A stretch of 64,000 nt of DNA from Schmidtea polychroa (lineage: Eukaryota): NCBI GenBank assembly GCA_044892525.1, contig CM097885.1, forward strand, positions 22,074,001-22,138,000, in the 5' to 3' direction. The translations under genes were made by a program, and so were the position numbers. Below, piece after piece: positions 1-28,970 of the stretch. The notes beneath the pieces are model-generated. The model saw only the letters and a list, made by a program, of their open reading frames with translations, had not been told where the DNA came from and did no database searches. Every line of letters begins with the position of its first letter. Positions within the stretch are counted from its first letter, which is position 1.

Positions 1-129
1 CTTGGTCCTGAGAATTTCAATAGAAAAAGGTAGTCTTCAATAAAAAAGCATGGATTTTTCACACTATAGTGAGGGGATCTTCTTGGTCATGAGAATTTCA
101 ATAGAAAAGGTGGTTTACATTAAAAAACG

Positions 130-790
130 CATAGTAAATTTTTAAAATAAAGTAAATTATGGGTCTAAAATTTAAAAATAAAGTAAATGATGGGTCTAAA
201 AATTTAAGTAAATCAAGGTTCAGATTTATTTTTGAAATAAAGTAAATTATGGTCTAAATAAGTAAATTATGGGCTAAGATTTTTCAATTAAAGTAAATAA
301 TGGTTCTAAAAAATTAAATTACAGTAAATTATGGTCCAAATTTTTAAATTAAAGTAAATTATGGTTCTTAAAAATTAAATTAAAGTAAATTATGGTTCTT
401 AAAAATTAAATTAAAGTAAATTATGGTCAAAATTTTTGAATTACAGTCCAAAAATTTAAATTAAAGTAAATTATGATCCAAATTTTTAAATTAAAGTAAA
501 TAATGGTTCTAAAAAATTAAATTAAAGTAAATAATGGTCCAAATATTTTAAATTACAGTAAATAATGGTTCTAAAAATTAAATTACAGTAAATAATGGTC
601 AAAAATTTTAAAATTAAAGTAAATTATGGTTCTAAAAATTAAATTAAAGTTAATTAAGGTCCAAATTTTAAAATTAAATAATCAATGGTAAAAAAAAATT
701 TAAATTAAAGTTAAATAAGTAAATTAAAGTAATAATTTTTAAATAAGTAAATTAAAGTAATGTAATAAGTAAATTAAAGTAAGATTTTTA
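130..790. repeat. Subterminal tandem array of ~30 bp units (AAATTAAAGTAAATTATGGT(T/C)CT/CAAA)
   Basis: Directly visible. The same array occurs at 12030-12690 (inverted), 23685-24360, 30510-31220 (inverted) and as a trace near 35380. Confidence 0.9.
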
Positions 791-968
791 AATTTATTAA
801 CAAAAATAGAAGGTGTTTGAGAATTGAAATTTTTTAATGGAAATTTTAATGAATTATTTTTTAAGTAATTTTTAATAGAAATTTTTATGAATAATTTTCA
901 ATGGTAATTTTTAATGGAAATTTTAATAGAATAATTTTTAAGATAATTTTTAATGAAAATTTTTATGA

Positions 969-1027
<59 letters not shown>

Positions 1028-1214
1028 TAATATTAATAATATATCAACCAAATACTATACAACACATAAAAAATTAACTAAACACATAAAAATAACTAGA
1101 CACATAACAAAACATATAAACATTAACTAAACACATAAAAATGAACTAGACACATAACAAACATAAAAATTTACCAAATAACAAATGTAAAGATATAAAA
1201 TTTATTCAATAAAA

Positions 1215-4109
1215 TTAGTCCTCATCGGACAAAATAACGTCATCGATATCGATGTCATCTTCTCCAAAATCTTCATTTAATTCTTCCTCATCTTCTCCAT
1301 CATTTTCTCCAACATTTTCTGAAACATTTTCTGCAACAATTTCTCCAACATTTTCTCCAATATTTAATTCACTTAATCTTACATGCCCATATGCAAGACT
1401 AGTATTTTGCCCCACCCAAACCCTTTTGTCATCTTTGTTAGTTAGTGCTATTTTTGTGTTTTTAATTGTAAAAATTTGATGATTTTTGCTTGTTATTTTA
1501 GTCTGAGGAACCGAAAAAATCTGGTTAGTGTTATAACAATCCAGGTATGACTGATGTTTTATGTCACTACCTTTCAATGTTACACCTTTAGCCTTTTTTG
1601 TTTCCTCATCACCCAACAAGCTATAACATTTAGGTCTAAGAAAAACCCACTCCTTATATTTAAGACCTTTATTCTCGTCTTTGAACTTTCCAATGACTGA
1701 ATCAAGGTTCTTACTATATAAGGAATGACAACTATTGTAATTGGAAGTATCCAATAAATTATCTCGAACCATTGCAGGTAAAAGAACCTCAAGTTTGCAG
1801 TTAATGACTTCGAGGAAAAAAGAATCTGTATCACCTGCAACGATATTAATTTTACAATTAAACTCATTGCGAAATGATTCCAGATCCTTATATTGCAATT
1901 CATACATTCTAAGTTTAGATAGATCAAGTACAGATTGACCAATGTAACTCGGTCTATCTAAACATATAGAATCGGAATTCAATAGTGCTGCAATTAAATT
2001 ATCTGCTATTTTAATAGATTTTTTAAAAGTCGGTTTTGACGAATATTTAACTAATTTACCGGCAGTTGTACAAAGACGAAGATTCATTCTTCTCTTTAAA
2101 TTTTCAACTGTTTTGCCGTATAAACTATTATTTAGCAATTTATAATAATTTTTATCTAAGCTATTTACGCTTTTTGATCTTAATTCGGTATTTGTATCTA
2201 TATATTTTTTAAAAATTGGTGATTGCTTAAATCTTACACCCCTATTTACACGTGTTACTTTAACACCAAGTTCCAAATATAATTTTAATAATCTCCAATG
2301 AATAACATAATTAGATTTTGGAAGATGAGTTAATAATAATTTTTCAACCTTAGACCCAGCAGGTTTCATTTTTTCAGCAGCTACAGGGAAATCATCCAAC
2401 TTATCATGAAGCTCAGAAGGAATTACAAGATCAACTTCAAGTGTGTATCCATAAGACAAAGATTCAAGATTTAAATTCCTACATTCATCCATTATTTTAT
2501 CAAATCCATCAAGAACCCAACAAAATTCGCCACAAGGTAATGATTGACTTAAAGCCCAGCCATAAAGATTATTAATATCTATATATAGTAACTCAGTGTT
2601 CTCGTCGGTTTTTACGTAATGCTTATTCACAAAAGTAAGACCGCCTCTTATTCCACCCTCATAAAAGCTAAACATTTCGTTTTCAGTTATGAGTTCAATT
2701 GGTTCATTTAAAGACATTAATGCAGAAGACCAAGACATGCCTGGAATTCCGAAATAATTCAATGGTTCCAATCTATTGTGAGCAATGGATTTCAACCGAA
2801 ACTGATGAAAGAAATCAGCCAAAAGAAAACAATCAAGTTTTAGGTAGATCATCATATAATCTAATAAAGTTACGCAATTAGTTTCTACCCAAATCTCCTG
2901 AGCTTTTTCATACTCAAGCTCAGTGACACCCTCCCAGATTGGTGGTAATTCATAAGTAGTTTGGAGAATATCTAAAGAAGTGGCGAAATTATAAGGGAAG
3001 ATTCCTTTTTCACTTACTATGGTGCCAGAAAAAGCAGAATTAGTAAAAGGCAAAGAATTCAAAGTTTTGACTGCTTTAGCCAAAGAATCATTGACAAATT
3101 GATACGAATCAATGAATCTTAGGCTAATTTTACCTAAATGAGCAATCAAAGATATAAATTTTTCCGTAGTTATTGGGATGCACCCTAAATTCCAATTTTT
3201 AAATTTATTTAATCCATATTTAAGTATATGGTGCATATCGTATCCCTTCAAGTTGTGAAATACGATAGGCAAAATTTTATTTATTTTCCGATTTACGTTA
3301 CATGTGCTACAAGCTGCACCCAAGTATTTCCCCGTAAAATGATCGTGATCTCTAACAGGATCGACGATAGATTTCATACAAAGATAACAAACAGATGCAC
3401 TAACAAATTGACGTTGTTCAATTTTTGTTAATTTCATCATAGGTTTCCTACCCATTTTATAATAAAAAGGAAGAACCTTATTTAATGCTATATCCTCTAT
3501 AGCACTTAAAAAACTCTCGACGCAATCTAAACCTATGAACTGCTGATAAGATTTAGATCCGTCAAAGTTATTTACAAGTAAAAGACCAGCAGATATTGGC
3601 ATGTGTCGTTGGAAATGATCATTATCAGAAGGTAAAATAGCCTCAAAATCTGCATAAACTACAAAAGGAGGAGTTACTGTTTTCGACCAGTCAGTAAACT
3701 GTAATAATTTATTTTGAGGGAAGGTGTAAAGAGTTGTTCCTAATTGATTACGTTTACATAATATTTCATGTTTTTCTAGTGCGTGTTTATTATTAAACCC
3801 ATTCAAACACCGATGGCACCATAATGAACGTATGCGTGTAGGACAACTAGTGTTGATATGACAATTCATTAACTTATTTAAATTACTTATAGCAACGTAA
3901 TGGAAATTGTTTCCTTTATTTAATAATAGTAAATTAATTACAGTTCCATTTAAAACTTTGGAACGATGTATAATATCTAAATGTGGGTGTTTTAATACGT
4001 AATTATCTATTAATTGTTTGTTATTGTCATAAGAAAAAACGTTAATTATTAAGCCTGGATTTTTGGCCTCGAATTTTCTAATATCTTTTAATTTCATGGG
4101 TAAGTCCAA
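1215..4109 (-). CDS. Protein-primed family B DNA polymerase (Polinton/Maverick type), left-arm copy
   Basis: ExoI VYADFE, ExoII FHNLKGYD, ExoIII YLKLD; polymerase motifs YIDINNLYG, KLLNNSLYGK, GDTDS; inserted CxxC...VRDHDHFTGKYLGAACxxCN (endonuclease VII-like) segment typical of Polinton pPolB; acidic C-terminal tail. Confidence 0.93.
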   Translation of the reverse strand: MDLPMKLKDIRKFEAKNPGLIINVFSYDNNKQLIDNYVLKHPHLDIIHRSKVLNGTVINLLLLNKGNNFHYVAISNLNKLMNCHINTSCPTRIRSLWCHRCLNGFNNKHALEKHEILCKRNQLGTTLYTFPQNKLLQFTDWSKTVTPPFVVYADFEAILPSDNDHFQRHMPISAGLLLVNNFDGSKSYQQFIGLDCVESFLSAIEDIALNKVLPFYYKMGRKPMMKLTKIEQRQFVSASVCYLCMKSIVDPVRDHDHFTGKYLGAACSTCNVNRKINKILPIVFHNLKGYDMHHILKYGLNKFKNWNLGCIPITTEKFISLIAHLGKISLRFIDSYQFVNDSLAKAVKTLNSLPFTNSAFSGTIVSEKGIFPYNFATSLDILQTTYELPPIWEGVTELEYEKAQEIWVETNCVTLLDYMMIYLKLDCFLLADFFHQFRLKSIAHNRLEPLNYFGIPGMSWSSALMSLNEPIELITENEMFSFYEGGIRGGLTFVNKHYVKTDENTELLYIDINNLYGWALSQSLPCGEFCWVLDGFDKIMDECRNLNLESLSYGYTLEVDLVIPSELHDKLDDFPVAAEKMKPAGSKVEKLLLTHLPKSNYVIHWRLLKLYLELGVKVTRVNRGVRFKQSPIFKKYIDTNTELRSKSVNSLDKNYYKLLNNSLYGKTVENLKRRMNLRLCTTAGKLVKYSSKPTFKKSIKIADNLIAALLNSDSICLDRPSYIGQSVLDLSKLRMYELQYKDLESFRNEFNCKINIVAGDTDSFFLEVINCKLEVLLPAMVRDNLLDTSNYNSCHSLYSKNLDSVIGKFKDENKGLKYKEWVFLRPKCYSLLGDEETKKAKGVTLKGSDIKHQSYLDCYNTNQIFSVPQTKITSKNHQIFTIKNTKIALTNKDDKRVWVGQNTSLAYGHVRLSELNIGENVGEIVAENVSENVGENDGEDEEELNEDFGEDDIDIDDVILSDED

Positions 4110-4996
4110 TGGATTATATATTAATTCAGATAAATTATAACTGGATGTCCTATTTCTAGCATAACTACTAACCTCATCATATTTTAAAATAGCTAAAATG
4201 CTATATAAAAAACATGAATCATCGGTGTTTTTTATATTAATTAAACAATATTTATTTTTTAGATAAGTAGGTGTTTCAATGAAACTCCTACCACTTAATC
4301 TACTTAGCCTACTTATCTTTGTTATGGTGAAGTGAATTTCTGTTATTTTTTTTTTATGATCCAGCTACTTCCTAACTCTGTGATATTACTTATTTTCTCG
4401 TTTAGTTCCCTAATGCCTTCGTCAAAAAATGATGCAGTTAAAGGCTTTGCATAATTTGAGATATTATTAACCTTTATTTCCCCGTCTTTTTCAAATTCGA
4501 TTGTTATTCCGAATTGAATTTTGACGGAGCCTAATTCGTTAATAATATCTCGTAATTTTTTTATTAGTTGTTCAGGAAATATTATTTCTTTTATATTTAA
4601 GTCGCTTGTATTTAAGCTTAATATTTGATGGGTACCTCTTAGATCTTTTTGTATTATTGGAACATTTCCACCTATTTGTATTATATTTAATCCATCCCAA
4701 GAGTCAAGGGAAATATTATCTAATCCGACCTGGGATTCAACAACCAATCCATCATGGGATTCGACAACCAATCCATCATTGGATTCCACAAAAGGCAATC
4801 CGACCTGGGATTCAAAAGAAGAAGTATCTAATTTAATTTTTTAATTTTTATTATTTTTTTCTATAGTTGAGGGTCTTTTAAAAACACTATCTTTTTTAAA
4901 ATTAAACCTATCTAAATGATTTTTATGTTTATTATAAAAAACGCTATATGTTACGGGGTCACTAGTCTTACATACGGGACATATTTTAAAACACAT
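4110..4996 (-). pseudogene. Disrupted N-terminal extension of pPolB, left-arm copy
   Basis: Mirror of 7811-8696, with the frameshift at the T10 run near 4346-4355 and the same in-frame stop. Confidence 0.75.
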
Positions 4997-5966
4997 TTTG
5001 ACGCTAAAGTTGACTTATTTAACATTTTCATAATAATTTAATAAAAATAATGTGATGAACCCACAAAGTAATATCATTTTTCATCAAATTGCAAAACAGT
5101 AATAACGTTTTCATAAAATTGTAACAAAGTAATAACATATTTCAGATAAATTTTCAACAGTTGTAAAATATTTAAGCAAATTGTAACAAGATTAGAAAAT
5201 ATTACAACAAAGTAGTAACATATTTCAGAAAATTTCAACAAATTTGTAAAATATTTATCAAATTGTAACTAAAATAATAAAAATATTGCAACAAAGTAAT
5301 AAAATAATAATGGTAATTAAGACAAATCAATACATTATTTCGAAGACGGACAACAAATTAAAAAGAATATTGTAACTAAAATAATAAAAATATTGCAACA
5401 AAGTAATAAAATAATACAACATTTTAAACTCTAGATCAATCCATTTTATAGAAAATTAAATTTTATCTATATAATATATGAATAAATATCCAAGGAAATT
5501 ACGTTAACGTATAATAAATACAAATTTATCGTAAAAACATGTGTGTATTACACACAAAACAAGATACATAATTTCTAATCAATCCATTTTATAGAAAATT
5601 AAATTTTATCTATATATTATATGAATAAAATCCTAAGAAAATTACGTTAACTGTATGAAAAATACAAATTTATCATAAAAACATGTGTGTATTACACACA
5701 ACATACGAGACATAATTTTTAATCAAGCTATTTTATAGAAAATTAAATTTTATCTATATAATATATGAATAAAAATCCAAGAAAATTACGTTAACCGCGC
5801 GAAAAACTACAAATTTATTGTAAAAACATGTGTGCATTACACACAAAGCATCAAACTGAAATTGTAATTGCGCCATGTTGTAGAGAATTAAATTCTGCCT
5901 ATACATTGTTACACTTAAATCTCGATCAGACATGTGAAAAGAGACATAAAAGATAAAAAACAGTAG

Positions 5967-6840
5967 AGTAGTAGGATGTGGGCTCCCCAGACCATGTCCC
6001 CTCCAGATCACATATACCCCCTCCCCCCCCCCTCCCCCCCCGGTCTGAAAAATTTTATTTTTTTTTAGAACGATGCCTAATATTTTTAGAACTATTACGT
6101 AATCAATGCCAAATATTTTTAGAACGATGCCTAATATTTTTAGAACTATTACGTAATTTTTTTTAAATTAAGTGATCCAGCGGGGACCTACTTTTTTTCA
6201 TCCCAAAAATTATTGTTCCCGCCAACATATTATATTGATCGATAGCTTATTTTAAAGCTCTGTGCAAGAACTTTCTAATGAGATATAGATTTTTATCATA
6301 CGATGACTCATCACATTTTTAGAACAAAGACAATGACTCATCACATTTTTAGAATGATGTCTAATATTTTAGAATGATGCCAAATATTTTTAGAATGATG
6401 CCAAATATTTTTAGAACGATGCCTAATATTTTTAGAACTATTACGTAATCGATGTCTAATATTTTTAGAACGATGCCAAATATTTTTAGAATGGTGCCTA
6501 ATATTTTTAGAACGATTACGTCATACTTTTAGAACGATGCCTAATATTTTTAGAACTATTACGTAATCAATGCCTAATATTTTTAGAACGATGCCTAATA
6601 TTTTTAGAACTATTACGTAATTTTTTTAAATTAATTGGTCCAGCGGTGACCTACTTTTTTTCTTCCCAAAAGTAATGTTTCCATCATCCGAATTTATTAA
6701 TCACACACTTATTTTAAAGCCCAGTGCAAAATCTATATACTGATATATAAATATTATTATTAACATTATTTTACACACGGGGGGAGGGGGTATATGTGGC
6801 CGAGCGGGCTCCTGGCCGGGCGGGCCCACATCATACTACT
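5967..6840. mobile_element. 874 bp non-coding mini-element with Polinton-like AGTAGTA termini at the palindrome centre
   Basis: Starts AGTAGTAGGATGTGGGC...CACATATACCCCCTCCCC and ends GGGGAGGGGGTATATGTG...GCCCACATCATACTACT (imperfect TIR). Interior is ~20 bp repeats (TTTTTAGAACGATGCCTAATA, TTTTTAGAACTATTACGTAA). Confidence 0.65.
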
Positions 6841-6959
6841 CTACTGTTTTTTATCTTTTATGTCTCTTTTCACATGTCTGATCGAGATTTAAGTGTAACA
6901 ATGTATAGGCAGAATTTAATTCTCTACAACATGGCGCAATTACAATTTCAGTTTGATGC

Positions 6960-7375
6960 TTTGTGTGTAATGCACACATGTTTTTACAATAAATTTGTAG
7001 TTTTTCGCGCGGTTAACGTAATTTTCTTGGATTTTTATTCATATATTATATAGATAAAATTTAATTTTCTATAAAATAGCTTGATTAAAAATTATGTCTC
7101 GTATGTTGTGTGTAATACACACATGTTTTTATGATAAATTTGTATTTTTCATACAGTTAACGTAATTTTCTTAGGATTTTATTCATATAATATATAGATA
7201 AAATTTAATTTTCTATAAAATGGATTGATTAGAAATTATGTATCTTGTTTTGTGTGTAATACACACATGTTTTTACGATAAATTTGTATTTATTATACGT
7301 TAACGTAATTTCCTTGGATATTTATTCATATATTATATAGATAAAATTTAATTTTCTATAAAATGGATTGATCTA
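6960..7375. repeat. Three tandem ~140 bp units upstream of pPolB (mirrored at ~5430-5845)
   Basis: TGTGTGTAATACACACATGTTTT...GTTAACGTAATTT...TAGATAAAATTTAATTTTCTATAAAAT occurs three times. Confidence 0.85.
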
Positions 7376-7810
7376 GAGTTTAAAATGTTGTATTATTTTA
7401 TTACTTTGTTGCAATATTTTTATTATTTTAGTTACAATATTCTTTTTAATTTGTTGTCCGTCTTCGAAATAATGTATTGATTTGTCTTAATTACCATTAT
7501 TATTTTATTACTTTGTTGCAATATTTTTATTATTTTAGTTACAATTTGATAAATATTTTACAAATTTGTTGAAATTTTCTGAAATATGTTACTACTTTGT
7601 TGTAATATTTTCTAATCTTGTTACAATTTGCTTAAATATTTTACAACTGTTGAAAATTTATCTGAAATATGTTATTACTTTGTTACAATTTTATGAAAAC
7701 GTTATTACTGTTTTGCAATTTGATGAAAAATGATATTACTTTGTGGGTTCATCACATTATTTTTATTAAATTATTATGAAAATGTTAAATAAGTCAACTT
7801 TAGCGTCAAA

Positions 7811-8696
7811 ATGTGTTTTAAAATATGTCCCGTATGTAAGACTAGTGACCCCGTAACATATAGCGTTTTTTATAATAAACATAAAAATCATTTAGATAGG
7901 TTTAATTTTAAAAAAGATAGTGTTTTTAAAAGACCCTCAACTATAGAAAAAAATAATAAAAATTAAAAAATTAAATTAGATACTTCTTCTTTTGAATCCC
8001 AGGTCGGATTGCCTTTTGTGGAATCCAATGATGGATTGGTTGTCGAATCCCATGATGGATTGGTTGTTGAATCCCAGGTCGGATTAGATAATATTTCCCT
8101 TGACTCTTGGGATGGATTAAATATAATACAAATAGGTGGAAATGTTCCAATAATACAAAAAGATCTAAGAGGTACCCATCAAATATTAAGCTTAAATACA
8201 AGCGACTTAAATATAAAAGAAATAATATTTCCTGAACAACTAATAAAAAAATTACGAGATATTATTAACGAATTAGGCTCCGTCAAAATTCAATTCGGAA
8301 TAACAATCGAATTTGAAAAAGACGGGGAAATAAAGGTTAATAATATCTCAAATTATGCAAAGCCTTTAACTGCATCATTTTTTGACGAAGGCATTAGGGA
8401 ACTAAACGAGAAAATAAGTAATATCACAGAGTTAGGAAGTAGCTGGATCATAAAAAAAAATAACAGAAATTCACTTCACCATAACAAAGATAAGTAGGCT
8501 AAGTAGATTAAGTGGTAGGAGTTTCATTGAAACACCTACTTATCTAAAAAATAAATATTGTTTAATTAATATAAAAAACACCGATGATTCATGTTTTTTA
8601 TATAGCATTTTAGCTATTTTAAAATATGATGAGGTTAGTAGTTATGCTAGAAATAGGACATCCAGTTATAATTTATCTGAATTAATATATAATCCA
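7811..8696 (+). pseudogene. Disrupted N-terminal extension of pPolB, right-arm copy
   Basis: ATG 7811 reads MCFKICPVCK...HKNH (Zn-finger-like), hits an in-frame TAA near 7964, then continues in frame into the 8009 ORF (ESxxGL repeats, GSSWII). After a frameshift at the A9 run 8452-8460 it reads ITEIHFTITK...GRSFIETPTYLKNKYCLINIKNTDDSCFLYSILAIL, the conserved Polinton pPolB N-terminal block, in frame with 8697. Confidence 0.8.
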
Positions 8697-11591
8697 TTGG
8701 ACTTACCCATGAAATTAAAAGATATTAGAAAATTCGAGGCCAAAAATCCAGGCTTAATAATTAACGTTTTTTCTTATGACAATAACAAACAATTAATAGA
8801 TAATTACGTATTAAAACACCCACATTTAGATATTATACATCGTTCCAAAGTTTTAAATGGAACTGTAATTAATTTACTATTATTAAATAAAGGAAACAAT
8901 TTCCATTACGTTGCTATAAGTAATTTAAATAAGTTAATGAATTGTCATATCAACACTAGTTGTCCTACACGCATACGTTCATTATGGTGCCATCGGTGTT
9001 TGAATGGGTTTAATAATAAACACGCACTAGAAAAACATGAAATATTATGTAAACGTAATCAATTAGGAACAACTCTTTACACCTTCCCTCAAAATAAATT
9101 ATTACAGTTTACTGACTGGTCGAAAACAGTAACTCCTCCTTTTGTAGTTTATGCAGATTTTGAGGCTATTTTACCTTCTGATAATGATCATTTCCAACGA
9201 CACATGCCAATATCTGCTGGTCTTTTACTTGTAAATAACTTTGACGGATCTAAATCTTATCAGCAGTTCATAGGTTTAGATTGCGTCGAGAGTTTTTTAA
9301 GTGCTATAGAGGATATAGCATTAAATAAGGTTCTTCCTTTTTATTATAAAATGGGTAGGAAACCTATGATGAAATTAACAAAAATTGAACAACGTCAATT
9401 TGTTAGTGCATCTGTTTGTTATCTTTGTATGAAATCTATCGTCGATCCTGTTAGAGATCACGATCATTTTACGGGGAAATACTTGGGTGCAGCTTGTAGC
9501 ACATGTAACGTAAATCGGAAAATAAATAAAATTTTGCCTATCGTATTTCACAACTTGAAGGGATACGATATGCACCATATACTTAAATATGGATTAAATA
9601 AATTTAAAAATTGGAATTTAGGGTGCATCCCAATAACTACGGAAAAATTTATATCTTTGATTGCTCATTTAGGTAAAATTAGCCTAAGATTCATTGATTC
9701 GTATCAATTTGTCAATGATTCTTTGGCTAAAGCAGTCAAAACTTTGAATTCTTTGCCTTTTACTAATTCTGCTTTTTCTGGCACCATAGTAAGTGAAAAA
9801 GGAATCTTCCCTTATAATTTCGCCACTTCTTTAGATATTCTCCAAACTACTTATGAATTACCACCAATCTGGGAGGGTGTCACTGAGCTTGAGTATGAAA
9901 AAGCTCAGGAGATTTGGGTAGAAACTAATTGCGTAACTTTATTAGATTATATGATGATCTACCTAAAACTTGATTGTTTTCTTTTGGCTGATTTCTTTCA
10001 TCAGTTTCGGTTGAAATCCATTGCTCACAATAGATTGGAACCATTGAATTATTTCGGAATTCCAGGCATGTCTTGGTCTTCTGCATTAATGTCTTTAAAT
10101 GAACCAATTGAACTCATAACTGAAAACGAAATGTTTAGCTTTTATGAGGGTGGAATAAGAGGCGGTCTTACTTTTGTGAATAAGCATTACGTAAAAACCG
10201 ACGAGAACACTGAGTTACTATATATAGATATTAATAATCTTTATGGCTGGGCTTTAAGTCAATCATTACCTTGTGGCGAATTTTGTTGGGTTCTTGATGG
10301 ATTTGATAAAATAATGGATGAATGTAGGAATTTAAATCTTGAATCTTTGTCTTATGGATACACACTTGAAGTTGATCTTGTAATTCCTTCTGAGCTTCAT
10401 GATAAGTTGGATGATTTCCCTGTAGCTGCTGAAAAAATGAAACCTGCTGGGTCTAAGGTTGAAAAATTATTATTAACTCATCTTCCAAAATCTAATTATG
10501 TTATTCATTGGAGATTATTAAAATTATATTTGGAACTTGGTGTTAAAGTAACACGTGTAAATAGGGGTGTAAGATTTAAGCAATCACCAATTTTTAAAAA
10601 ATATATAGATACAAATACCGAATTAAGATCAAAAAGCGTAAATAGCTTAGATAAAAATTATTATAAATTGCTAAATAATAGTTTATACGGCAAAACAGTT
10701 GAAAATTTAAAGAGAAGAATGAATCTTCGTCTTTGTACAACTGCCGGTAAATTAGTTAAATATTCGTCAAAACCGACTTTTAAAAAATCTATTAAAATAG
10801 CAGATAATTTAATTGCAGCACTATTGAATTCCGATTCTATATGTTTAGATAGACCGAGTTACATTGGTCAATCTGTACTTGATCTATCTAAACTTAGAAT
10901 GTATGAATTGCAATATAAGGATCTGGAATCATTTCGCAATGAGTTTAATTGTAAAATTAATATCGTTGCAGGTGATACAGATTCTTTTTTCCTCGAAGTC
11001 ATTAACTGCAAACTTGAGGTTCTTTTACCTGCAATGGTTCGAGATAATTTATTGGATACTTCCAATTACAATAGTTGTCATTCCTTATATAGTAAGAACC
11101 TTGATTCAGTCATTGGAAAGTTCAAAGACGAGAATAAAGGTCTTAAATATAAGGAGTGGGTTTTTCTTAGACCTAAATGTTATAGCTTGTTGGGTGATGA
11201 GGAAACAAAAAAGGCTAAAGGTGTAACATTGAAAGGTAGTGACATAAAACATCAGTCATACCTGGATTGTTATAACACTAACCAGATTTTTTCGGTTCCT
11301 CAGACTAAAATAACAAGCAAAAATCATCAAATTTTTACAATTAAAAACACAAAAATAGCACTAACTAACAAAGATGACAAAAGGGTTTGGGTGGGGCAAA
11401 ATACTAGTCTTGCATATGGGCATGTAAGATTAAGTGAATTAAATATTGGAGAAAATGTTGGAGAAATTGTTGCAGAAAATGTTTCAGAAAATGTTGGAGA
11501 AAATGATGGAGAAGATGAGGAAGAATTAAATGAAGATTTTGGAGAAGATGACATCGATATCGATGACGTTATTTTGTCCGATGAGGACTAA
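8697..11591 (+). CDS. Protein-primed family B DNA polymerase (Polinton/Maverick type), right-arm copy
   Basis: Same 964 aa translation and motifs as 1215-4109. Confidence 0.93.
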   Translation: MDLPMKLKDIRKFEAKNPGLIINVFSYDNNKQLIDNYVLKHPHLDIIHRSKVLNGTVINLLLLNKGNNFHYVAISNLNKLMNCHINTSCPTRIRSLWCHRCLNGFNNKHALEKHEILCKRNQLGTTLYTFPQNKLLQFTDWSKTVTPPFVVYADFEAILPSDNDHFQRHMPISAGLLLVNNFDGSKSYQQFIGLDCVESFLSAIEDIALNKVLPFYYKMGRKPMMKLTKIEQRQFVSASVCYLCMKSIVDPVRDHDHFTGKYLGAACSTCNVNRKINKILPIVFHNLKGYDMHHILKYGLNKFKNWNLGCIPITTEKFISLIAHLGKISLRFIDSYQFVNDSLAKAVKTLNSLPFTNSAFSGTIVSEKGIFPYNFATSLDILQTTYELPPIWEGVTELEYEKAQEIWVETNCVTLLDYMMIYLKLDCFLLADFFHQFRLKSIAHNRLEPLNYFGIPGMSWSSALMSLNEPIELITENEMFSFYEGGIRGGLTFVNKHYVKTDENTELLYIDINNLYGWALSQSLPCGEFCWVLDGFDKIMDECRNLNLESLSYGYTLEVDLVIPSELHDKLDDFPVAAEKMKPAGSKVEKLLLTHLPKSNYVIHWRLLKLYLELGVKVTRVNRGVRFKQSPIFKKYIDTNTELRSKSVNSLDKNYYKLLNNSLYGKTVENLKRRMNLRLCTTAGKLVKYSSKPTFKKSIKIADNLIAALLNSDSICLDRPSYIGQSVLDLSKLRMYELQYKDLESFRNEFNCKINIVAGDTDSFFLEVINCKLEVLLPAMVRDNLLDTSNYNSCHSLYSKNLDSVIGKFKDENKGLKYKEWVFLRPKCYSLLGDEETKKAKGVTLKGSDIKHQSYLDCYNTNQIFSVPQTKITSKNHQIFTIKNTKIALTNKDDKRVWVGQNTSLAYGHVRLSELNIGENVGEIVAENVSENVGENDGEDEEELNEDFGEDDIDIDDVILSDED

Positions 11592-11778
11592 TTTTATTGA
11601 ATAAATTTTATATCTTTACATTTGTTATTTGGTAAATTTTTATGTTTGTTATGTGTCTAGTTCATTTTTATGTGTTTAGTTAATGTTTATATGTTTTGTT
11701 ATGTGTCTAGTTATTTTTATGTGTTTAGTTAATTTTTTATGTGTTGTATAGTATTTGGTTGATATATTATTAATATTA

Positions 11779-11849
<71 letters not shown>

Positions 11850-12817
11850 TCATAAAAATTTTCATTAAAAATTATCTTAAAAATTATTCTATTAAAATTT
11901 CCATTAAAAATTACCATTGAAAATTATTCATAAAAATTTCTATTAAAAATTACTTAAAAAATAATTCATTAAAATTTCCATTAAAAAATTTCAATTCTCA
12001 AACACCTTCTATTTTTGTTAATAAATTTAAAAATCTTACTTTAATTTACTTATTACATTACTTTAATTTACTTATTTAAAAATTATTACTTTAATTTACT
12101 TATTTAACTTTAATTTAAATTTTTTTTTACCATTGATTATTTAATTTTAAAATTTGGACCTTAATTAACTTTAATTTAATTTTTAGAACCATAATTTACT
12201 TTAATTTTAAAATTTTTGACCATTATTTACTGTAATTTAATTTTTAGAACCATTATTTACTGTAATTTAAAATATTTGGACCATTATTTACTTTAATTTA
12301 ATTTTTTAGAACCATTATTTACTTTAATTTAAAAATTTGGATCATAATTTACTTTAATTTAAATTTTTGGACTGTAATTCAAAAATTTTGACCATAATTT
12401 ACTTTAATTTAATTTTTAAGAACCATAATTTACTTTAATTTAATTTTTAAGAACCATAATTTACTTTAATTTAAAAATTTGGACCATAATTTACTGTAAT
12501 TTAATTTTTTAGAACCATTATTTACTTTAATTGAAAAATCTTAGCCCATAATTTACTTATTTAGACCATAATTTACTTTATTTCAAAAATAAATCTGAAC
12601 CTTGATTTACTTAAATTTTTAGACCCATCATTTACTTTATTTTTAAATTTTAGACCCATAATTTACTTTATTTTAAAAATTTACTATGCGTTTTTTAATG
12701 TAAACCACCTTTTCTATTGAAATTCTCATGACCAAGAAGATCCCCTCACTATAGTGTGAAAAATCCATGCTTTTTTATTGAAGACTACCTTTTTCTATTG
12801 AAATTCTCAGGACCAAG

Positions 12818-12858
12818 GAGACCCACCCAAATAATATTTATCCTTGGCTTGTTTATTG

Positions 12859-12892
<34 letters not shown>

Positions 12893-13037
12893 TATTTAAA
12901 ATCCCAGAAAACATTGGGTATTACGGCAACAATTATGTAATCAAAAAATGTCTACGGAAAAAGTTATGCAATCAAAAGTTTGCAACATTTTTTACCCCCC
13001 CCCCCCTATTGCTGCCGCGGGCCACTAACTCCCTACT
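12818..13037. mobile_element. Outer terminus of the pPolB palindromic element (...GCGGGCCACTAACTCCCTACT)
   Basis: Homologous to 32040-32122 and 32329-32360 (GCGGGCCACTATCTACCTACT[ACT]). Similarity stops sharply at CTACT, i.e. a 5'-AGTAG terminus, and unrelated coding sequence follows. Confidence 0.75.
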
Positions 13038-13383
13038 TATACCTCAAGAATTAGATGTAGACGGATATTTATGTTCAGATACAGGATATTCAATAAATTA
13101 TGTAATAGTAATCAAAAATCAGATATCAAATAAAGTATATGAGTCCGACAGGTCAAATAATGAGATAGAAAGGGGTGATGAAAATGAAAGAAGAGTTGAA
13201 AATGAAGGTGTACTAGATAACAAGGACATAGGAACTAATGATAAAGATACAAGTATAATAACAGAAGTATTAAAGGAAGGGCAAGTAACCAAAAATGAAA
13301 TGAATAGTGAAATAAAGACAAAAAAGCTTAGAACTTTGTATGAAATAAAAAAGAGCCTGGTGAAGTCAGAATTAGAAGTGGAT

Positions 13384-13752
13384 GAGACAAAAGAGTTATT
13401 AAAGAATTTAGTTAAAATTGTATATCCAATGTTCGAAATAAAAGTGGATACAAAGTGCAAATTGGGAGACACAGTGAAAGGAATGGAAAAGAAACTTCCT
13501 AGTGTTATGCAGAGATTTGGTGAAAATGATGACTTTTGTAATAGAGAGGTCATGAAAACTTTGACGGAAAATGGAATTGATAAAGAAGTAGTACTAACAA
13601 GCTTAACATATGCAGTTTTAGAGATAGAAGCTCATAAGATAATGGAATCAGATGAATTAGAGAATTTGATAGATGCAGCTGCTCGAGTTTTAAATGAATA
13701 TTTAATGAAATGGATAAAAAGGAATGGAGGTTGGACCAAACTGGTAAAAGTG
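13384..13752 (+). pseudogene. Bcl-2-like domain within the retroelement polyprotein
   Basis: BH2-like LMKWIKRNGGWTKL, degenerate BH1-like VMKTLTENGIDKEVVLTSLTYA and BH3-like LGDTVKGME, in Bcl-2-like order and spacing across a helical ~120 aa segment. Confidence 0.65.
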
Positions 13753-13833
13753 CTTACGATAAATGAAAATAACGAAATTAATATACCTCATAAATCGCTA
13801 AATGGGAGAGTTAGCCCAATATTGAGAAAAACG

Positions 13834-15700
13834 ATGGTATTTCCATGGGTAATGTTTATGATAATTGTTTTGTGCGCGATAATTACTCAGACAACCTGTA
13901 TGACTGCATATGATTGTTCACAAACGGAAATGGGAAAGGTTTATTCGGTAGTAGATGTGTCAGAATGTTCGGATGCATACCCGAGAAAACTAAAGATTGA
14001 AAAAGATGTAAAATATCATGTTTATCAAGAATCTGATTTAAGACGAACGAAGGTTCGAGAATGTATAGTTAAACACACTACATTTATATTTTATTGTGGG
14101 AAGTGAAGTCATACTTCATTGATAAAGATGTATACAATCCCAAGGCCAGTGGAAGTTATGCCAGAAAATTGTTTAGCAGCATTTCAAACAGAAGAATTGA
14201 AAATAAGTTCGGAAATTAAACTGAAGGCAAAAATAAATCATAGGACGAGAGAAACGGTGGTTACGAAAGGATTAATGAAGCAAGACGGAGATTGTGAAGG
14301 GGAACCGTACAAAGTCAGTGGTAAAATTATTCAAAAAGCAGTGGTGATAGAAGAATATCTAACGGAGTTGAGAGAATTTGAAGGAGCTTTTGATGATGAT
14401 ACGGGGAAGTTACAGACCCACCCATTTTGTAATATGAAACAAAATAACTGTCAAACGGGGGAATCAATTCTTGTTTATGAAGTAAAAACTAATGTATGTA
14501 ACTTAGCGCATTTAAAAACGATGAATTTCAAAGAAATTAGTGGAGAGCAGTTTAGGGAGAGGCCTGACAATATTAATGTAAATTATGGAGTGAATATGAC
14601 AATCAGAACAACGCCCGTTTGGACAAGAAAAACAGCGACTGTATTAATGTCAATAATTCCGATGGACGCCATGCGTTTTATATTAAAGGAAGTTACCAAT
14701 AAATGTGGTCAGACGGTATACTCCACAAATTACAAAGGAGTTTACGTATCAACAGTAATAGTACAGGAAGCTAAAACTAGAATTCATACGGGTGATATTA
14801 AATTAACCCACTACTTTAACAATAAAATTGATTACTTATTTCATTATAGTCAGAACACCATGGAGAATATCTATCGAGAAATAATCTTAAATGATTGTAA
14901 ATTAAATAAAGAAATACTTCGAAATCGAATGGCAATGGCCATCACAAACCCAAATTTGGTTGCACCCATGTTAATATCAGAAAATGGAGTATTTGCGAGA
15001 ATCTTCGGAGAAGCTTTATACAGTTATAAATGTAAGGAAGTGTCAGTAAAAATAATGAAATACGAAAAAAGTACTAATGAATTGCCAGTTAGCGTCGATG
15101 GGAAGATACGATTTATGGAACCAATAACACGGATATTACTTGAAGAAAACACAAAACCAAAATTACTCCAGTGCAATAGATTGCTAGCACCTTTATACCG
15201 TTTGGCACCAGATTCTTGGGTAGCATTACCCGATTACCGAGGAGTTAGAACTCCAGATAAACTGGAATTAATCAATTTAGAGTATTTGGTGAACTTTACA
15301 TCCCTAAAAAAAATGGCACAACTATGTCTCTACGCAAGCGAGGATATAGAAGAAGCTCAAAGAAATTTATTATTTCCATCAAAGAAAGAACGGGTGATAT
15401 CAGAAATGATTGATACAATATTACCAAACGGAGAGAGTTAGGTTAATTATGAATATCTCCTAATGCCAGATCATTTCAAAAAAGCAACGTACAAAACGAT
15501 GGAAAAAAATTGGGGAAAATTTAGGTTCTTAGGACAAGCGTGTGCTGGTTTGATTGGCATCTATGTGATCGTAGTAACAATAAAGGTGATACTATCTCAA
15601 ATTTTATCTACTCATAGAATATTTAAAATATCCGGATGGTCATGGAAAATAATTATTGGTTGTATCCCGTTTATAGCAAGATTTTTTATTACTCATCATC
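13834..15700 (+). pseudogene. Envelope glycoprotein, class III fusion type (chuvirus G / herpes gB-like), two in-frame stops
   Basis: Hydrophobic signal WVMFMIIVLCAII, then TAYDC...YSVVDVSEC, a Cys-rich ectodomain, YFNNKIDYL...C, GEALYSYKC.EVSV...NELPV...FMEPITRIL, and a C-terminal TM segment (GLIGIYVIVVTIKVIL). Confidence 0.8.
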
Positions 15701-16099
15701 AATATAAAGATATGGCGAATGTGAGAGCACAGTTAAAAACTGATCAAAAGAGTGAAGAATCTTTGTGTGAATCGAGGGATAGAAATAGTGGCAATAACAA
15801 TAACAATGACAATGGCAGGAACGAGCAAATGTATTTTAGAAAAGAAATAATAAAAAGCGAGGTAAAACCAGAGTCACGGTGCCTAATAGAACAGATGCCA
15901 AATCTTACAGGAATCGACTCTCTCTCAAAATGGTATACACCGGTATTCCTTCCAACAGCACCAACATATCCAAGTGAAAGGCTAAAAGAAATGAAACCAG
16001 TAGAACATATTAAACTAGAAGCTGAAAGGATTGAACCAACAAGTGCCGAAATAGAACGGAAAAACATGCTCGAATTACCATGTAGTTATGCGTTGATGA

Positions 16100-16930
16100 C
16101 AATAGGAAATAGAGGCAAACAACCTCGAACAAATATACTATTTAACGAAAGAAAGGTCAAAGCCTTGTTAGATTCCGGTTCCAGTCATACTATAGTGTCA
16201 GATAAACTGTTGACAAGGGAAGAGAGAGCAAACCGACGAATAAAATTATTAAATCAATGTCTCATAATGTACTGAATATAATCGGGAAGCTAGAAGTCAA
16301 ATTAATTATTGGTAATCAAGAAATAACACATTATGTGTCAGTAATGAGTAAAAGCCCTGTTGAATGTCTAATTGGTATGGATGTTATGGAGCAACTGCGA
16401 GGAACTGCGCTGGATCTGACAACAGGAAAATTAATAAAGGGACAATTAGATACAGTTGCAAATAAACCAAGAGAAGTTGTTTTAAATCAAACGTTGGAAT
16501 TACCGGCAAGAAGCGAAATAATATGTTATGCTAGTGTAGCAAACACGTCAGATGACGAATGTGTTTTCGAACCCAGTCGAAAACTAGTAGAGAAATACGA
16601 ATTGCCAATGTGCGACGAGATAGTACAAGTAAAAGATCAGGCAGTGCCAGTGAGAATGGCTAATATTAGCACAAAATCTATCCAAATGAAACCTAACACG
16701 AAGTTAGGAAAGTTAATGAAATTTAAAACAGAAGAAGCCCAAAAATTACCGAGAAACATTAAAATTTATAGAAAACCACAAGTGACGAGCAACGATTTGA
16801 CAGAAGCACAAAAACAACAGTTTATGGCATTATTAAAAAAGTACAAAAGAGTGTTTGCAAAGCACGAGTATGATTTGGGACTCACCCAGGTGATCGAACA
16901 TGAGATACCACTACTCGATGAAACTCCTAT
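16100..16930 (+). pseudogene. Retropepsin aspartic protease plus post-protease region
   Basis: ALLDSGSSHTIV at ~16160 and CLIGMDVM after a frameshift near 16255. Confidence 0.88.
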
Positions 16931-17970
16931 TAAATTATCTGAATAAGGGATATAATCAATTTAAAGTAAAAGAAGAAGAAAGAAGGAAAACGGCATTTTC
17001 AGACGGTAAAGGTTTGTACGAATTCAATGTGTTACCATTTGGCCTAACGGGAGCGCCAGCCACGTTCCAGCGAGGTATGAATTTTGTGTTAAGAGACATC
17101 CCACACGCATTAGTTTATATTGATGATATAATAATATTTTCGAATAATTTTCAGGAACATTTGGAAGATGTAGAAACAGTATTCCAAAGATTGTTAAAGG
17201 CGAATTTAAAAATAAAACTCTCAAAATGTGAATGGGGGAAATCAGAAGTAGTCTATGTTGGTCATATTATATCCCGAAATGGATTACAGCCAAACCCCGA
17301 AAATGTAGAAAAAATTAAAAATTATCCAATTCCAAAAAATGTAGATCATGTTAGACAATTTCTCGGATTAGCCAGTTATTATAGAAAATTCATTAAAAAT
17401 TTTGCGCATGTAGCACAACCCCTGAACATATTATTAAAAAAGCAGGCTCAATTTAAATGGACAAAAACACAACAGGAAGCGTTCGAATCGCTGAAAGAAA
17501 GTTTGATTAAAAAACCAATATTAAGATATCCAAATTTTAAAATACCATTTATCCTAATGACAGATGCGAGCAATTTTGCGTTGGGCGCAGTGCTAGGACA
17601 ACAGGTTGAAGGAGAAAGAGATCACGTCATCGCATATGCGAGTAGAACTTTGAAACCACATGAAAAGAATTATTCTACGATTAAAAAAGAAACATTGGCA
17701 TTAGTTTATGGAATAACTACGTTTCGACAGTATTTAGTTGGGAGAAGATTTGTTGTCTTTACGGACCATAACCCTTTACAATGGCTCATGAAGCATAGAG
17801 ATTCAACAAGTAAGTTGATTGGATGGTCAATCGCACTACAGGAATATGATTTTGAAATTAAATACGGTACGGGTAAATCAAATGCAAATGCAGACACACT
17901 GTCGAGAATCCCTAAAGAAAATAATAATAATAATGAAAAAACGAACTATAATGATACAATATTTAATTAA
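16931..17970 (+). pseudogene. Gypsy-type reverse transcriptase (N-terminal part deleted) and RNase H
   Basis: KGYNQ, KTAF, LPFGLTGAPATFQR, YIDD (17116), TDASNFALGAVL, TDHNPL, NANADTLSR. The expected SP-V...CVDYRxLN...PLP block between ETPIK and KGYNQ is missing. Confidence 0.93.
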
Positions 17971-18189
17971 ATCAGCAAATAATATAAAGGAATTACAATA
18001 TGATCAAGAAAATGATGAGGAACTAAATCAATTACGAAAAAATGCAGTAACAATTAAAAAGGAGAGTGATTGGAAACATATTGTTGAGGAAAAACATAAA
18101 TATATTATCCACGAGGGTTTATTAAAATGTGTAAAAAATGAAAATTTACTAATTATAGTTCCAGCAAAACATCGAGAAGCATTATTGTT

Positions 18190-19900
18190 GATTTACCACG
18201 ATGGAGCACTAGGAGGGCATTTATCAGCTCGAAAAACATTATCAAGATTGAAATTGAAGTATTATTGGGAGACAATGGAACAAGATGTCAAACAATGGTG
18301 CCATACTTGTAGAGTATGCTTGACAAGACGAAATACGGAAGGAAAATAAAAGTTCCACTAAGACCTATGCCGGTGCTAGCAGCGCCAATGGAAATGACAG
18401 CAATGGACATTGTCGGTCCATTGCCGGAAACAATAAATGGCAATAAATATATCGTTGTATTTTGCGACTATCTAACTAAATGGCCAGAAGCATATGCCAT
18501 GCAAAATCAAAAGGCAGAAACGGTTGCAAAAATATTAGTAGAAAACATTATTTTCCGATATGGAGCACCAAAGAAATTACTTACAGATCAAGGAACGAAT
18601 TTTCAAAGTGAATTATTTAGTTCGATATCGGAGCTATTTGGTATATTAAAACTTAGTACATCACCATATCATCCACAAACAGATGGCCTAGTAGAAAGGT
18701 TTAACGGAACATTAATTAACATGATATCATCTTATGTGAATCGAAAACAAAGAGATTGGGATTTATTTATCAAACCATGTTTATTCGCATATCGAAATGC
18801 AGTTAATGAAAGCGCTGGTGAAACACCCTTTTATCTTATGTATCTACGGCGAAATAATATGCCAATTGATTTGAAATTTCAAACACCTATATCACAGTAT
18901 ATGGATATATCCGATTATAAAGTATAAAGACAATGGAACAAGATGTCAAACAATGGTGCCATACTTGTAGAGTATGCTTGACAAGACGAAATACGGAAGG
19001 AAAATAAAAGTTCCACTAAGACCTATGCCGGTGCTAGCAGCGCCAGTGGAAATGACAGCAATGGACATTGTCGGTCCATTGCCGGAAACAATAAATGGCA
19101 ATAAATATATCGTTGTATTTTGCGACTATCTAACTAAATGGCCAGAAGCATATGCCATGCAAAATCAAAAGACAGAAACGGTTGCAAAAATATTAGTAGA
19201 AAACATTATTTTCCGATATGGAGCACCAAAGAAATTACTTACAGATCAAGGAACGAATTTTCAAAGTGAATTATTTAGTTCGATATCGGAGCTATTTGGT
19301 ATATTAAAACTTAGTACATCACCATATCATCCACAAACAGATGGCCTAGTAGAAAGGTTTAACGGAACATTAATTAACATGATATCATCTTATGTGAATC
19401 GAAAACAAAGAGATTGGGATTTATTTATCAAACCATGTTTATTCGCATATCGAAATGCAGTTAATGAAAGCACTGGTGAAACACCCTTTTATCTTATGTA
19501 TCTACGGCGAAATAATATGCCAATTGATTTGAAATTTCAAACACCTATATCACAGTATATGGATATATCCGATTATAAAGTAATTATGCATGAGAGATTA
19601 CAGTCAGTGTGGGCTCAAGCTGGTTTAAAAATAAGACATAGCCAGGAAACGTATAAAGAATCCTACGACAGAAAAGCACATGCTCATAATATTAAAATAG
19701 GAGATTTAGTCTATGTGAATAAACCAGAACCAGAAAAGGGCTTGTCACCAAAGTTACAACTACTGTTTAAAGGACCGTATATTGTATGTGATACAACAGA
19801 AACCAACCTGAAATTACGTCCACAAAATAATAAAAAGGCTGGGACAATAATAGTTCATGCTAATCGTTGTAAGAAAGTGCCGGCAATGGAGAGTGATAGA
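18190..19900 (+). pseudogene. Integrase (HHCC, DDE, GPY/F) with 658 bp tandem duplication
   Basis: H...GGH...CHTC, MDIVGPL, TDQGTNF, YHPQTDGLVERFN, FKGPY. 18270-18924 is repeated at 18928-19582 with at least 3 substitutions. Confidence 0.95.
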
Positions 19901-19989
19901 TATCCGTTAAGATCGAAAAAGAACAAATCAGTAGAAGAAAAAGTGGTCAAGCAAAAAGTTATTAAAAACCCAGTACCCTTAGGATATAC

Positions 19990-21208
19990 CACTAAAGTCT
20001 TATTAATAACAACAATAATGCTACTAAATGTTTTGGAAACAAATGCAGGTCGATCTTTTCCAAAGTATGCAATAAAAAGGGTCCCATTATTGGAGAAAAT
20101 TCATATATATTCAACATGTACCCAAATAGTATGGTTTTATCTGTGTGGGTTAACGGAAGAAATAGAAATAAGTAATTTATTAAATCACTTTGACCCACCT
20201 GTAAAGTTGAATTTCAATAAAAATATTTTCGTGGCTCGTCAATTAACAGTCAATTATGAATACCCTTGGCAAATAACAGAGTTACTATTTCAAAATAATA
20301 ATACAAAAATACGTAATATAATCCAAATTGAAATATTAACAAAAAATTTAAACAGTCTGGTTTCAATAGAACCAGTAGTGAATGGAATCGACGTATATTG
20401 GGAACCCCACGAATCCCAAAAAGTGAAATTAATCTTCCAAAATAATATTATCGATACATTAAACATCAGAAAACCCTTTGTCCATTACAACAATTTAAAA
20501 TTAAATCAAACGTATGATATCGTTGTGCAATATTATGAAAAGCTTTTGCGTGAAAATGGTACCGAAATCGATAACCAGTGGGTAAAAATTGAGTCTATTC
20601 GACAATCCATAAAATTGGAAAATGAACCAAATCGTATTATTTTACGATATGATGATCAAAAATGGATAGCCACATGACAAGCGATAACCAATAAAAAAGT
20701 GGAAATTTATTATTGCGGAAAACTGCAAGCTATATTGCAAGGTAATATTACATCCAAAATATTAACATTTCAGCAAATACGTTCAAAGTCAACTTCAAAA
20801 ATTGTGATTGTAAAAATAAAATATTATCAACGTGCTTTTCATCCCGATCATTGGAAAATCGTTCTAGTGGAAAGTAAATCTATTCGAGTACAATTTGATA
20901 CAGCTGAGGCAGAAAGCTCAAAATATAGGCACAATTCATCAACCAATGTGATTCATCAACTCATAAATGACATTAATTCTTCTCTTATTAATGGAACACG
21001 AATTCCAAGAAACAAAACTACATTCTCATTATCAAATGATTTTGAAAATACTTATGTTATTTTGTCATCTATCATCATCAGTGTGACACTATTTTTCATT
21101 ATCATTCTTCTCACTCTACTGATTTACTTTCAAAGACTTAACAGACAATATGAATGTCAATCCAAGACCTCAAAACCTTGGATTGTCTATGAGGAAACAT
21201 GGGTCTAG
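19990..21208 (+). pseudogene. Type I membrane protein-like extension (signal-like segment, FN3-like ectodomain, TM, short tail) fused after integrase
   Basis: VLLITTIMLLNVLETNA; IDVYWEP...NNLKLNQTYDIVVQ (FN3-like); in-frame TGA at 20675; TM YVILSSIIISVTLFFIIILLTLLIYF; ends ETWV. Confidence 0.65.
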
Positions 21209-25902: not shown

Positions 25903-25948
<46 letters not shown>

Positions 25949-26359
25949 TCAACAGTTACCAACAATCGGTTACTAAATATTTTTAACTAGGTGCTACCAA
26001 GTACTTACATCTAGATACCACGTACTAAATAACTCTCAAACAACCAGATACTTACAACTAACTACTAAATATTCTTCACTGTATTTTATGAAATGTATTT
26101 TTTAAATTAATTTTTTATCTATCTACAAAAATATATTTAATTACAATCATTAGAAAAACCTTTTCAAATTTAACAAAAATGTTGATTTTCATCAAAAAAC
26201 CACAACTCAATCACTTTAAAACACTACGTGAAATTCAAAATAATTTAAATTACAATGAAAGACTAATGAATTCTAATTTACAAAACATTCTTCTTTTAAA
26301 TGATAACTACTGACTTATTATTGCAAAGTAAAAATCACATTCAATAAATACTTATTATT
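23283..26359. repeat. Left arm of second, gene-less foldback
   Basis: Reverse complement of 28508-31822, apart from scattered SNPs, one extra ~30 bp unit and an extra ~200 bp block in the right arm. Lacks the outermost ~300 bp. Confidence 0.95.
24575..25565. repeat. Strand-skewed variant minisatellite (CAACCAAGTACTAA / CAACTAGATAC), mirrored at ~29305-30297
   Basis: C/A-rich, G-poor shuffled short units; traces also near 26490-26790 and 35835-36460. Confidence 0.9.

Positions 26360-28918: not shown

Positions 28919-28970
<52 letters not shown>

Follow-up and report, generated by a model that had tools for sequence, protein, structure and literature searches.

We describe a largely palindromic mobile element found at the left edge of a 64,000-nucleotide stretch of the Schmidtea polychroa genome (781 Mb, AT-rich, about 30% GC). 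This stretch, hereafter the window, covers positions 22,074,001 to 22,138,000 of contig CM097885.1 in GenBank assembly GCA_044892525.1, and coordinates are counted from its first nucleotide unless another sequence is named. The element is 13,258 bp long and has two mirror-image arms of 6.2 kb, each bearing one gene for a DNA polymerase that is protein-primed and belongs to family B (pPolB). It probably derives from the polymerase end of a resident Maverick that was copied back on itself, and is predicted to be propagated by its family's own polymerase acting at two identical ends and by a borrowed integrase, perhaps with borrowed capsids as well.

The palindrome is formed by three collinear inverted blocks: 1-1041/11777-12817 and 969-4354/8452-11837, both 100% identical, and 4347-6028/6779-8460 (99%). 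Within the window, these blocks define arms at 1-6028 and 6779-12817 that are 99-100% complementary, in agreement with the two near-perfect reverse-complement arms of about 6 kb recognized in an initial annotation of this DNA. Inverted repeats make up 94% of the whole element. Between the arms lies a non-palindromic centre of 750 bp (6029-6778), made of direct 21-bp repeats with a C-run and a G-run at its borders. Inverted blocks, ends and a 6-bp duplication delimit the part of the element inside the window at 1-13037. The right end had been placed correctly at 13037, but the size of 13,037 bp given at first was too small: the left arm is cut by the window edge, a further 220 bp lie outside, and the complete element runs from -220 to 13037.

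Once the DNA left of the window is added, the symmetry reaches position -220, and it ends exactly at -220 and 13037. The mirror AGTAG terminus and the duplication of about 6 bp that the initial annotation had expected on this side are both present. The ends read AGTAGGGAGTTAGTGGCC at left and GGCCACTAACTCCCTACT at right, are of the AGTAG type and are mutually complementary. Both are abutted by TATACC in direct orientation, a perfect 6-bp target-site duplication (copies at -226 to -221 and 13038-13043), so that the symmetry stops short of host DNA. In 2006, Kapitonov and Jurka reportedly described Polintons as bounded by terminal inverted repeats whose ends read 5'-AG...CT-3' and as duplicating 6 bp of their target site; the element shows the same AG...CT ends and 6-bp duplication as Polintons/Mavericks. 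The insertion lies in a multi-copy retroelement (13038-21208, plus strand), and in five out of five paralogous copies of this host the site is empty and uninterrupted, with a single TATACC. Contigs from public sequencing runs that have loose ends at 13037 show the same empty junction, although none of these short contigs spans the whole element. Exact ends, duplication and empty paralogous sites together establish a clean insertion of a 13,258-bp element.

The same polymerase open reading frame (ORF) occurs once per arm, at 1215-4109 on the minus strand and 8697-11591 on the plus strand, both reading from the centre outward as first annotated. The long ORF matches Pfam DNA_pol_B_2 (E 4e-31), the protein-primed family B polymerases. 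Reading ORF 8697-11591 by eye, we found YADFEA, NLKGYD, YLKLD, DINNLYG, KLLNNSLYG and GDTDS, which we take to be exonuclease and polymerase motifs, and an Endonuclease VII-like Cys/His insert. Comparison with resident Mavericks indicates that the gene is longer than this ORF of 964 amino acids (aa), which in the left arm begins at a TTG. The gene starts near 4996 in the left arm (1215-4996, minus strand) and near 7811 in the right arm (7811-11591, plus strand). In the window copy, the N-terminal part is broken on both sides: by a poly-A run at 4347-4356 and an in-frame stop at about 4841-4843 in the left arm; in the right arm, a stop codon lies in frame at 7964-7966 and the frame is broken at the poly-A run 8452-8460. 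The length of the poly-A run differs between the two arms and from other copies. The stop at 7964-7966 is common to seven further sampled arms from four other loci, and a ninth arm has the same letters behind an extra base. Other copies have an uninterrupted pPolB ORF, 1255-1322 codons long and in some elements preserved in the two arms alike, and ORFs covering at least 1183 codons are present in 16 of the 27 sampled arms. Purifying selection, described below, and the catalytic motifs argue for a functional polymerase in this family, the window copy and its whole subfamily being interrupted.

Database searches returned 875 relatives of the polymerase, many with PF03175 and PF02945. DNA_pol_B_2 was not reported by hmmscan for full-length proteins of 1301 and 1436 aa, though it was for the 964-aa part, which we take to be a filter effect. 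No match to the polymerase was obtained in a search of the PDB by sequence, and its N-terminal 438 residues retrieved only unnamed, mostly arthropod clusters from the Atlas. In two public runs that we guess to be RNA, contigs are deeper over the polymerase than over the inner arms, but contig depth cannot rank regions.

A full-length parent, which the initial annotation had proposed to look for, has a counterpart in the same genome: a canonical Maverick family of the parent type, with termini AGTAGGTAGATAGTGGCC. Two of its elements measure 16,678 and 17,933 bp and are flanked by the duplications CACCCA and GAAGCG. The inverted repeats are about 1.3 kb long, pPolB lies beside one end and reads towards that end, and Pfam identifies a TBP-like protein, an A32-type ATPase, an rve integrase with a chromodomain and a RING protein. 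The window arm matches the polymerase end of this Maverick with 90.7% nucleotide identity over 4.5 kb, from position 7823, just past the start codon, to the subterminal arrays. Protein identity is 96-97% in the polymerase core and 85% in the N-terminal 300 residues. For the 1.8 kb upstream of pPolB (6029-7811), no counterpart is detectable in the canonical relative. Homology extending from the gene start to the subterminal arrays supports the earlier proposal that one Polinton end was copied back on itself. The element is a non-autonomous Maverick derivative: it has termini and internal sequence in common with an autonomous type and lacks transposition functions. Another Maverick, the abundant TBP-carrying type at C1:22789124-22806578 (termini AGTAGTAAGATG, duplication TTAATA), was considered as parent and rejected, as its polymerase is only 63% identical in protein; with about 3000 TBP candidates, that family is far more abundant than the AGTAGGTAGATAGTGGCC family. 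In both canonical AGTAGGTAGATAGTGGCC copies, the integrase is split into two same-frame ORFs about 24 nucleotides apart (L064 3976-5136 and the matching part of L062), for which a short intron is likelier than damage.

The polymerase is the sole gene of the palindromic element, where no other ORF of at least 140 aa is found. When all 22 ORFs of at least 100 aa from the canonical relative were compared with the element by tblastn, only the polymerase, its antisense ORFs and one terminal-repeat ORF matched. The relative's rve integrase ORFs thus have no match in the element. The same holds for the virion module (capsid proteins, A32-type ATPase and adenain-like protease) as far as it is represented in these ORFs, the relative's capsid and protease ORFs not being identified by Pfam. 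ORF survey and tblastn both uphold the initial report that no integrase, ATPase, protease or capsid gene is visible.

The element belongs to a large family. All 40 scored genomic matches to its polymerase are about 100% identical, and most come in minus/plus pairs. We sampled 20 loci, namely the window and 19 others selected as apparently solo genes (five), terminus pairs (five) or apparently unpaired termini (nine). Further palindromic copies, which the initial annotation had proposed to search for, are indeed present: 12 of the 20 loci, window included, hold complete two-armed palindromes of 11.9-16.3 kb. One more has both termini and a truncated arm (9.4 kb), two are two-armed but incomplete in the retrieved DNA, and five are fragments or rearranged, one of these holding 500 N. 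Perfect 6-bp duplications, each different, flank 12 of the 13 elements with both termini, the exception being at C1:55.94 Mb. The canonical single-polymerase Maverick layout occurs at none of the 20 loci. The 'solo' polymerase matches and 'unpaired' termini were also considered as parents and rejected: the five solo matches retrieved and all nine unpaired termini proved to be palindromes or fragments.

The genome was also surveyed by exact words, for which reversed-word controls gave 0 matches. The terminal 18-mer has 1291 matches over its three variants: 372 for the window's type (GGGAGTT), 638 for the GGTAGAT type and, by subtraction, 281 for the GGTAGTT type. A 22-mer common to all sampled polymerases of the group has 1182 matches. 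Another 22-mer, diagnostic for the young polymerase clade of the window, has 223, which suggests about 110 young-clade elements in the genome. On C1, 39 of 43 minus-strand young-clade matches have a plus-strand partner less than 25 kb away (38 at 2.6-7.5 kb, one at 19.9 kb). Paired termini of the window's type number 45 on C1, with a median length of 13.66 kb; 23 pairs enclose a minus/plus young-clade pair, two enclose a single match and 20 enclose none, two of the latter holding polymerases of another subclade. Members of the young clade share the same inner arms and centre, neither of which is found in the canonical relative. One copy of 11,938 bp (element 2380-14317 of G000:C3:53322535-53338534, duplication ATAAAG) is without the central spacer: its arms meet directly, about 84 bp out of register, inside the 144-bp tandem array, as would be expected had the turn-around been formed anew. 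A separate region of about 1 Mb at the start of C1 (G000:C1:318000-1365000) contains 48 exact polymerase 22-mer matches, many in same-strand pairs 2.4-6 kb apart, unlike the minus/plus pairs seen elsewhere; the region may be rich in Mavericks or arranged in tandem.

The same genome also contains palindromes without any gene. We confirmed nine of them, with 18-nucleotide termini of the same type, 6-bp duplications, a palindromic build and lengths of 8.7-17.5 kb. No ORF of at least 150 aa is present in six out of six sampled palindromes with GGTAGTT ends, nor in three out of five with GGTAGAT ends. A second palindromic stretch within the window (23308-32357) has arms at 23308-26359 and 28508-31595 that are 97-100% complementary. 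Right termini matching the GGTAGAT type exactly occur twice, at 32105-32122 and 32340-32357, and a left terminus is lacking. The stretch looks like a truncated gene-less palindromic Maverick satellite.

Phylogeny argues for transmission in palindromic form. In the polymerase tree, the window's clade (support 0.99) holds palindromic elements only, and since its members share inner arms and centre, the palindromic form itself appears to be inherited. The polymerase is under purifying selection among palindromic subfamilies: for pairs inside the all-palindromic clade, the ratio of non-synonymous to synonymous differences (pN/pS) is 0.13-0.20, with binomial P values of 1.5e-7 to 1.5e-10 against neutrality. 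The two arms of an element are nearly identical: out of about 3130 sites, 13 of 14 elements have only 0-3 that differ between their arms, while up to 102 differ from one element to another. Five frameshifts are found in both arms of an element, and two frameshifts and one in-frame stop are arm-specific. Frameshifts common to both arms indicate that the process homogenizing the arms copies harmful changes too; a sister element with just 2 differing sites lacks one of these frameshifts. The comparison with snap-back genomes made in the initial annotation fits the structure, an end joined to its own reverse complement. Instead of a defective genome of sporadic occurrence, however, these data support a stable, long-lived, multi-copy lineage that is propagated in palindromic form and whose polymerase is under selection.

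From these observations we infer a copy-back origin, replication by the family's own polymerase and integration by an integrase supplied in trans. Protein-primed strand-displacement replication would have begun at the polymerase-proximal end of a Maverick, and synthesis would have turned back 1-1.8 kb upstream of the polymerase gene, leaving a molecule with two identical origins. The lineage would then have spread as a palindrome, intact copies supplying polymerase and interrupted ones, such as that of the window, being served in trans. Displaced single strands may snap back into hairpins, where one arm could correct or template the other and the arms would evolve in concert. Integration may be performed by the Maverick rve integrase; the 18-nucleotide termini of the presumed helper differ at one or two positions, and its duplication is likewise 6 bp long. 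The length of the palindromes (median 13.7 kb, about 75-90% of the canonical 16.7-17.9 kb) would possibly fit packaging in a canonical capsid. To our knowledge, the replication mode of Mavericks/Polintons has never been shown, and protein-primed panhandle replication is a model only.

Several observations weigh against this scenario. In both arms of the window copy, pPolB is interrupted by a stop in frame and by a break of the frame, and the entire near-identical subfamily carries the in-frame stop; as interrupted copies have spread as a subfamily, a polymerase in cis is not needed for spread. In a second clade of the polymerase tree (support 0.97), the canonical family stands together with two palindromes whose centre is different. 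The 18-nucleotide termini of the palindromes and of the AGTAGGTAGATAGTGGCC family are similar, not identical, with 16-17 matching positions. One complete element (G000:C1:45036301-45056300, duplication GTCATG), the exception among the 14 whose arms were compared, has arms from two subclades, with 17 differences in 3132 sites, a sign that family members recombine. Exchange with autonomous elements could import sequence selected elsewhere and so inflate the signal of selection, and arm identity could result from gene conversion in place or, in part, from assembly polishing.

We may also hypothesize that the palindromes are recurrent dead-end by-products of autonomous Mavericks, that is, defective snap-back genomes each formed afresh and integrated once, in which case the selection observed would be that of the parents. 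Two findings speak for such an origin and indicate that palindromes have probably formed more than once: canonical-polymerase-specific words lie in minus/plus pairs separated by 4.5-9.4 kb, at about 14 places out of 100 matches listed, and the two palindromes with a different centre group with the canonical family. We nevertheless consider it unlikely: although polymerases of the window's clade diverge by up to 2.7%, all members retain common inner arms and a common centre that the canonical relative lacks, and the roughly 110 young copies have a single architecture. Furthermore, not one of the 20 sampled loci is autonomous with this polymerase, and the spacing of the two polymerase genes falls into discrete, hence inherited, classes.

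Slightly less probable still is that we are dealing with a common type of non-autonomous DNA transposon whose terminal inverted repeats happen to be very long. Here, a Maverick integrase would move the element and the host would copy it, the polymerase would be a passenger, and chromosomal gene conversion would keep the arms alike. That interrupted copies have spread, that gene-less palindromes with the same 18-nucleotide termini have also done so, and that frameshifts are common to both arms all fit this explanation. However, a passenger gene should drift, and the pN/pS values reported above (P down to 1.5e-10) and the long ORFs kept in 16 of 27 arms speak against drift. Many near-identical copies also imply copying, and we know of no Maverick excision.

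Finally, certain library and assembly procedures are known to generate palindromes artificially, and the public runs consulted consist of short contigs only. A fold-back artefact of assembly or amplification or a one-off chromosomal inverted duplication, both of which the initial annotation had named as outcomes fatal to its proposal, is nevertheless extremely improbable and was rejected: the mirror symmetry stops right at the element's termini, beside a direct 6-bp duplication, and does not enter host DNA, five paralogous sites are empty, whole palindromes lie at many loci with different 6-bp duplications (12 further complete copies elsewhere, 11 with their own duplication) and the runs of a second study contain 56% of the sampled words.

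Returning to a selected palindromic lineage, we may ask how it relates to the gene-less palindromes. The selected polymerase family may replicate these as well. A bolder reading, which we put forward tentatively and hold to be rather less likely than the copy-back origin itself, is that of a third tier of parasitism. The element would be a polymerase-only palindromic satellite of Mavericks, taking integrase and capsids from them and using its own pPolB for its own ends; copying of a hairpin half-genome would keep its arms identical, and it would serve gene-less palindromes in turn.

Compared with canonical Mavericks/Polintons (for example G000:C1:33944388-33962320), the element has similar termini (16-17 of 18 nucleotides), a 6-bp duplication, subterminal arrays and an end-proximal, outward-reading pPolB. 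It differs in its 6.2-kb arms and two polymerase genes, canonical elements having inverted repeats of about 1.3 kb; integrase, ATPase, TBP-like and RING genes and capsid-region ORFs are missing here. By the published definition, all Polintons encode a protein-primed DNA polymerase and an rve integrase (PMC5499653). As it has neither integrase nor capsid module, the palindromic element is filed as a non-autonomous derivative resembling a snap-back defective genome. Snap-back or copy-back genomes (for a definition, see PMC13506859) likewise have one end duplicated in inverted orientation, form a near-perfect palindrome, have lost most genes and would need a helper. Unlike such by-products, the element is integrated in the germline with target duplications, exceeds 100 copies, forms subfamilies, has a selected gene and constitutes a stable lineage. 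Our description of its gene-less relatives above shows the same termini, duplications and build; these have no ORF of at least 150 aa, in contrast to the polymerase in each arm here.

Snap-back examples in adenovirus are said to go back to Daniell and Mullenbach in 1978. Kikuchi et al. reportedly described in 1985 a 'hairpin plasmid' derived from pGKL1, a hairpin or palindromic form of one end of a protein-primed linear replicon. Derivatives of the pGKL1 type differ from our element in being cytoplasmic yeast plasmids, non-integrating, and deletion derivatives observed in the laboratory that form no transposon family. Drosophila Foldback elements have long inverted repeats of tandem arrays, belong to another transposase superfamily and produce a 9-bp duplication. 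Among the sources consulted, the nearest published case is that of butterfly polintons, whose terminal inverted repeats of about 2 kb hold hexon and adenain genes, so that each insertion has two copies (bioRxiv 10.1101/2025.02.07.637071). Core genes thus lie inside the inverted repeats in both, but butterfly polintons are otherwise complete elements, whereas here the repeats amount to 94% of the element and contain the polymerase only. Transpovirons are likewise linear and small, have inverted ends but no capsid, and rely on the system of a larger virus (PMC5499653); they differ in that their polymerase is inactivated and fused to a helicase, and in bearing several further genes. In the literature searched, we found no description of palindromic, fold-back, non-autonomous or defective Polintons/Mavericks.

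With two origins and a polymerase, and being young, abundant, selected and concerted in its arms, the palindrome family provides natural material for testing the replication model. It also illustrates how a virus-like transposon can give rise to satellites that persist as stable lineages, comparable to defective-interfering genomes that have become fixed in a germline. Through them a genome gains megabases of perfect palindromes of great length, a kind of sequence known for its fragility and for the difficulty of assembling it.

We also looked for relatives outside this genome. A scan of metagenome and viral contigs with the single polymerase sequence returned no relatives. A profile scan of metagenome and viral contigs returned 77 loci, mostly on contigs of 2-6 kb and none with two inverted polymerase genes; as short-read assemblies collapse palindromes, no conclusion about other species follows from this negative. 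Two of the contigs, environmental ones whose distant polymerase relatives have about 30-33% identity, end in short local fold-backs just downstream of the gene (L113, 4790-4996; L127, 4776-4941).

The remaining parts of the element are rich in repeats. Subterminal tandem arrays, noted in the initial annotation, are present on repeat analysis. The left subterminal region (1-1214) contains arrays with units of about 31, 61, 39 and 49 bp and an (AAT)n run, and mirrors 11592-12817. On the right, the subterminal arrays (11592-12683) are 70-79% similar to those of the canonical relative and are followed by a terminal unique region (12684-13037), whose last 18 nucleotides (13020-13037) form the terminus. 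The left inner arm upstream of pPolB (4997-6028) is rich in tandem repeats with units of 30, 83 and 144 bp, and has no detectable homology to the canonical relative; the right inner arm (6779-7810) is its mirror. Over the 21-bp repeat of the centre (6108-6661), contig depth is 4-5 times that of the arms in DNA runs and is highest in a run guessed to be RNA. This repeat probably has copies elsewhere too.

The host retroelement, in the order of its plus strand, encodes ORF fragments like a Monjiviricetes-type fusion glycoprotein, then protease, reverse transcriptase, RNase H and integrase. Across 12844-21208, three ORF pieces match the Monjiviricetes-type (class III) viral fusion glycoprotein, with a best E value of 4.6e-50. 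The first of these pieces also has a sub-threshold match to the Bcl-2 family (E 2e-5; it scores 25.4 bits, the cut-off being 31.4). The genome contains at least 40 copies of the retroelement, 96-100% alike.

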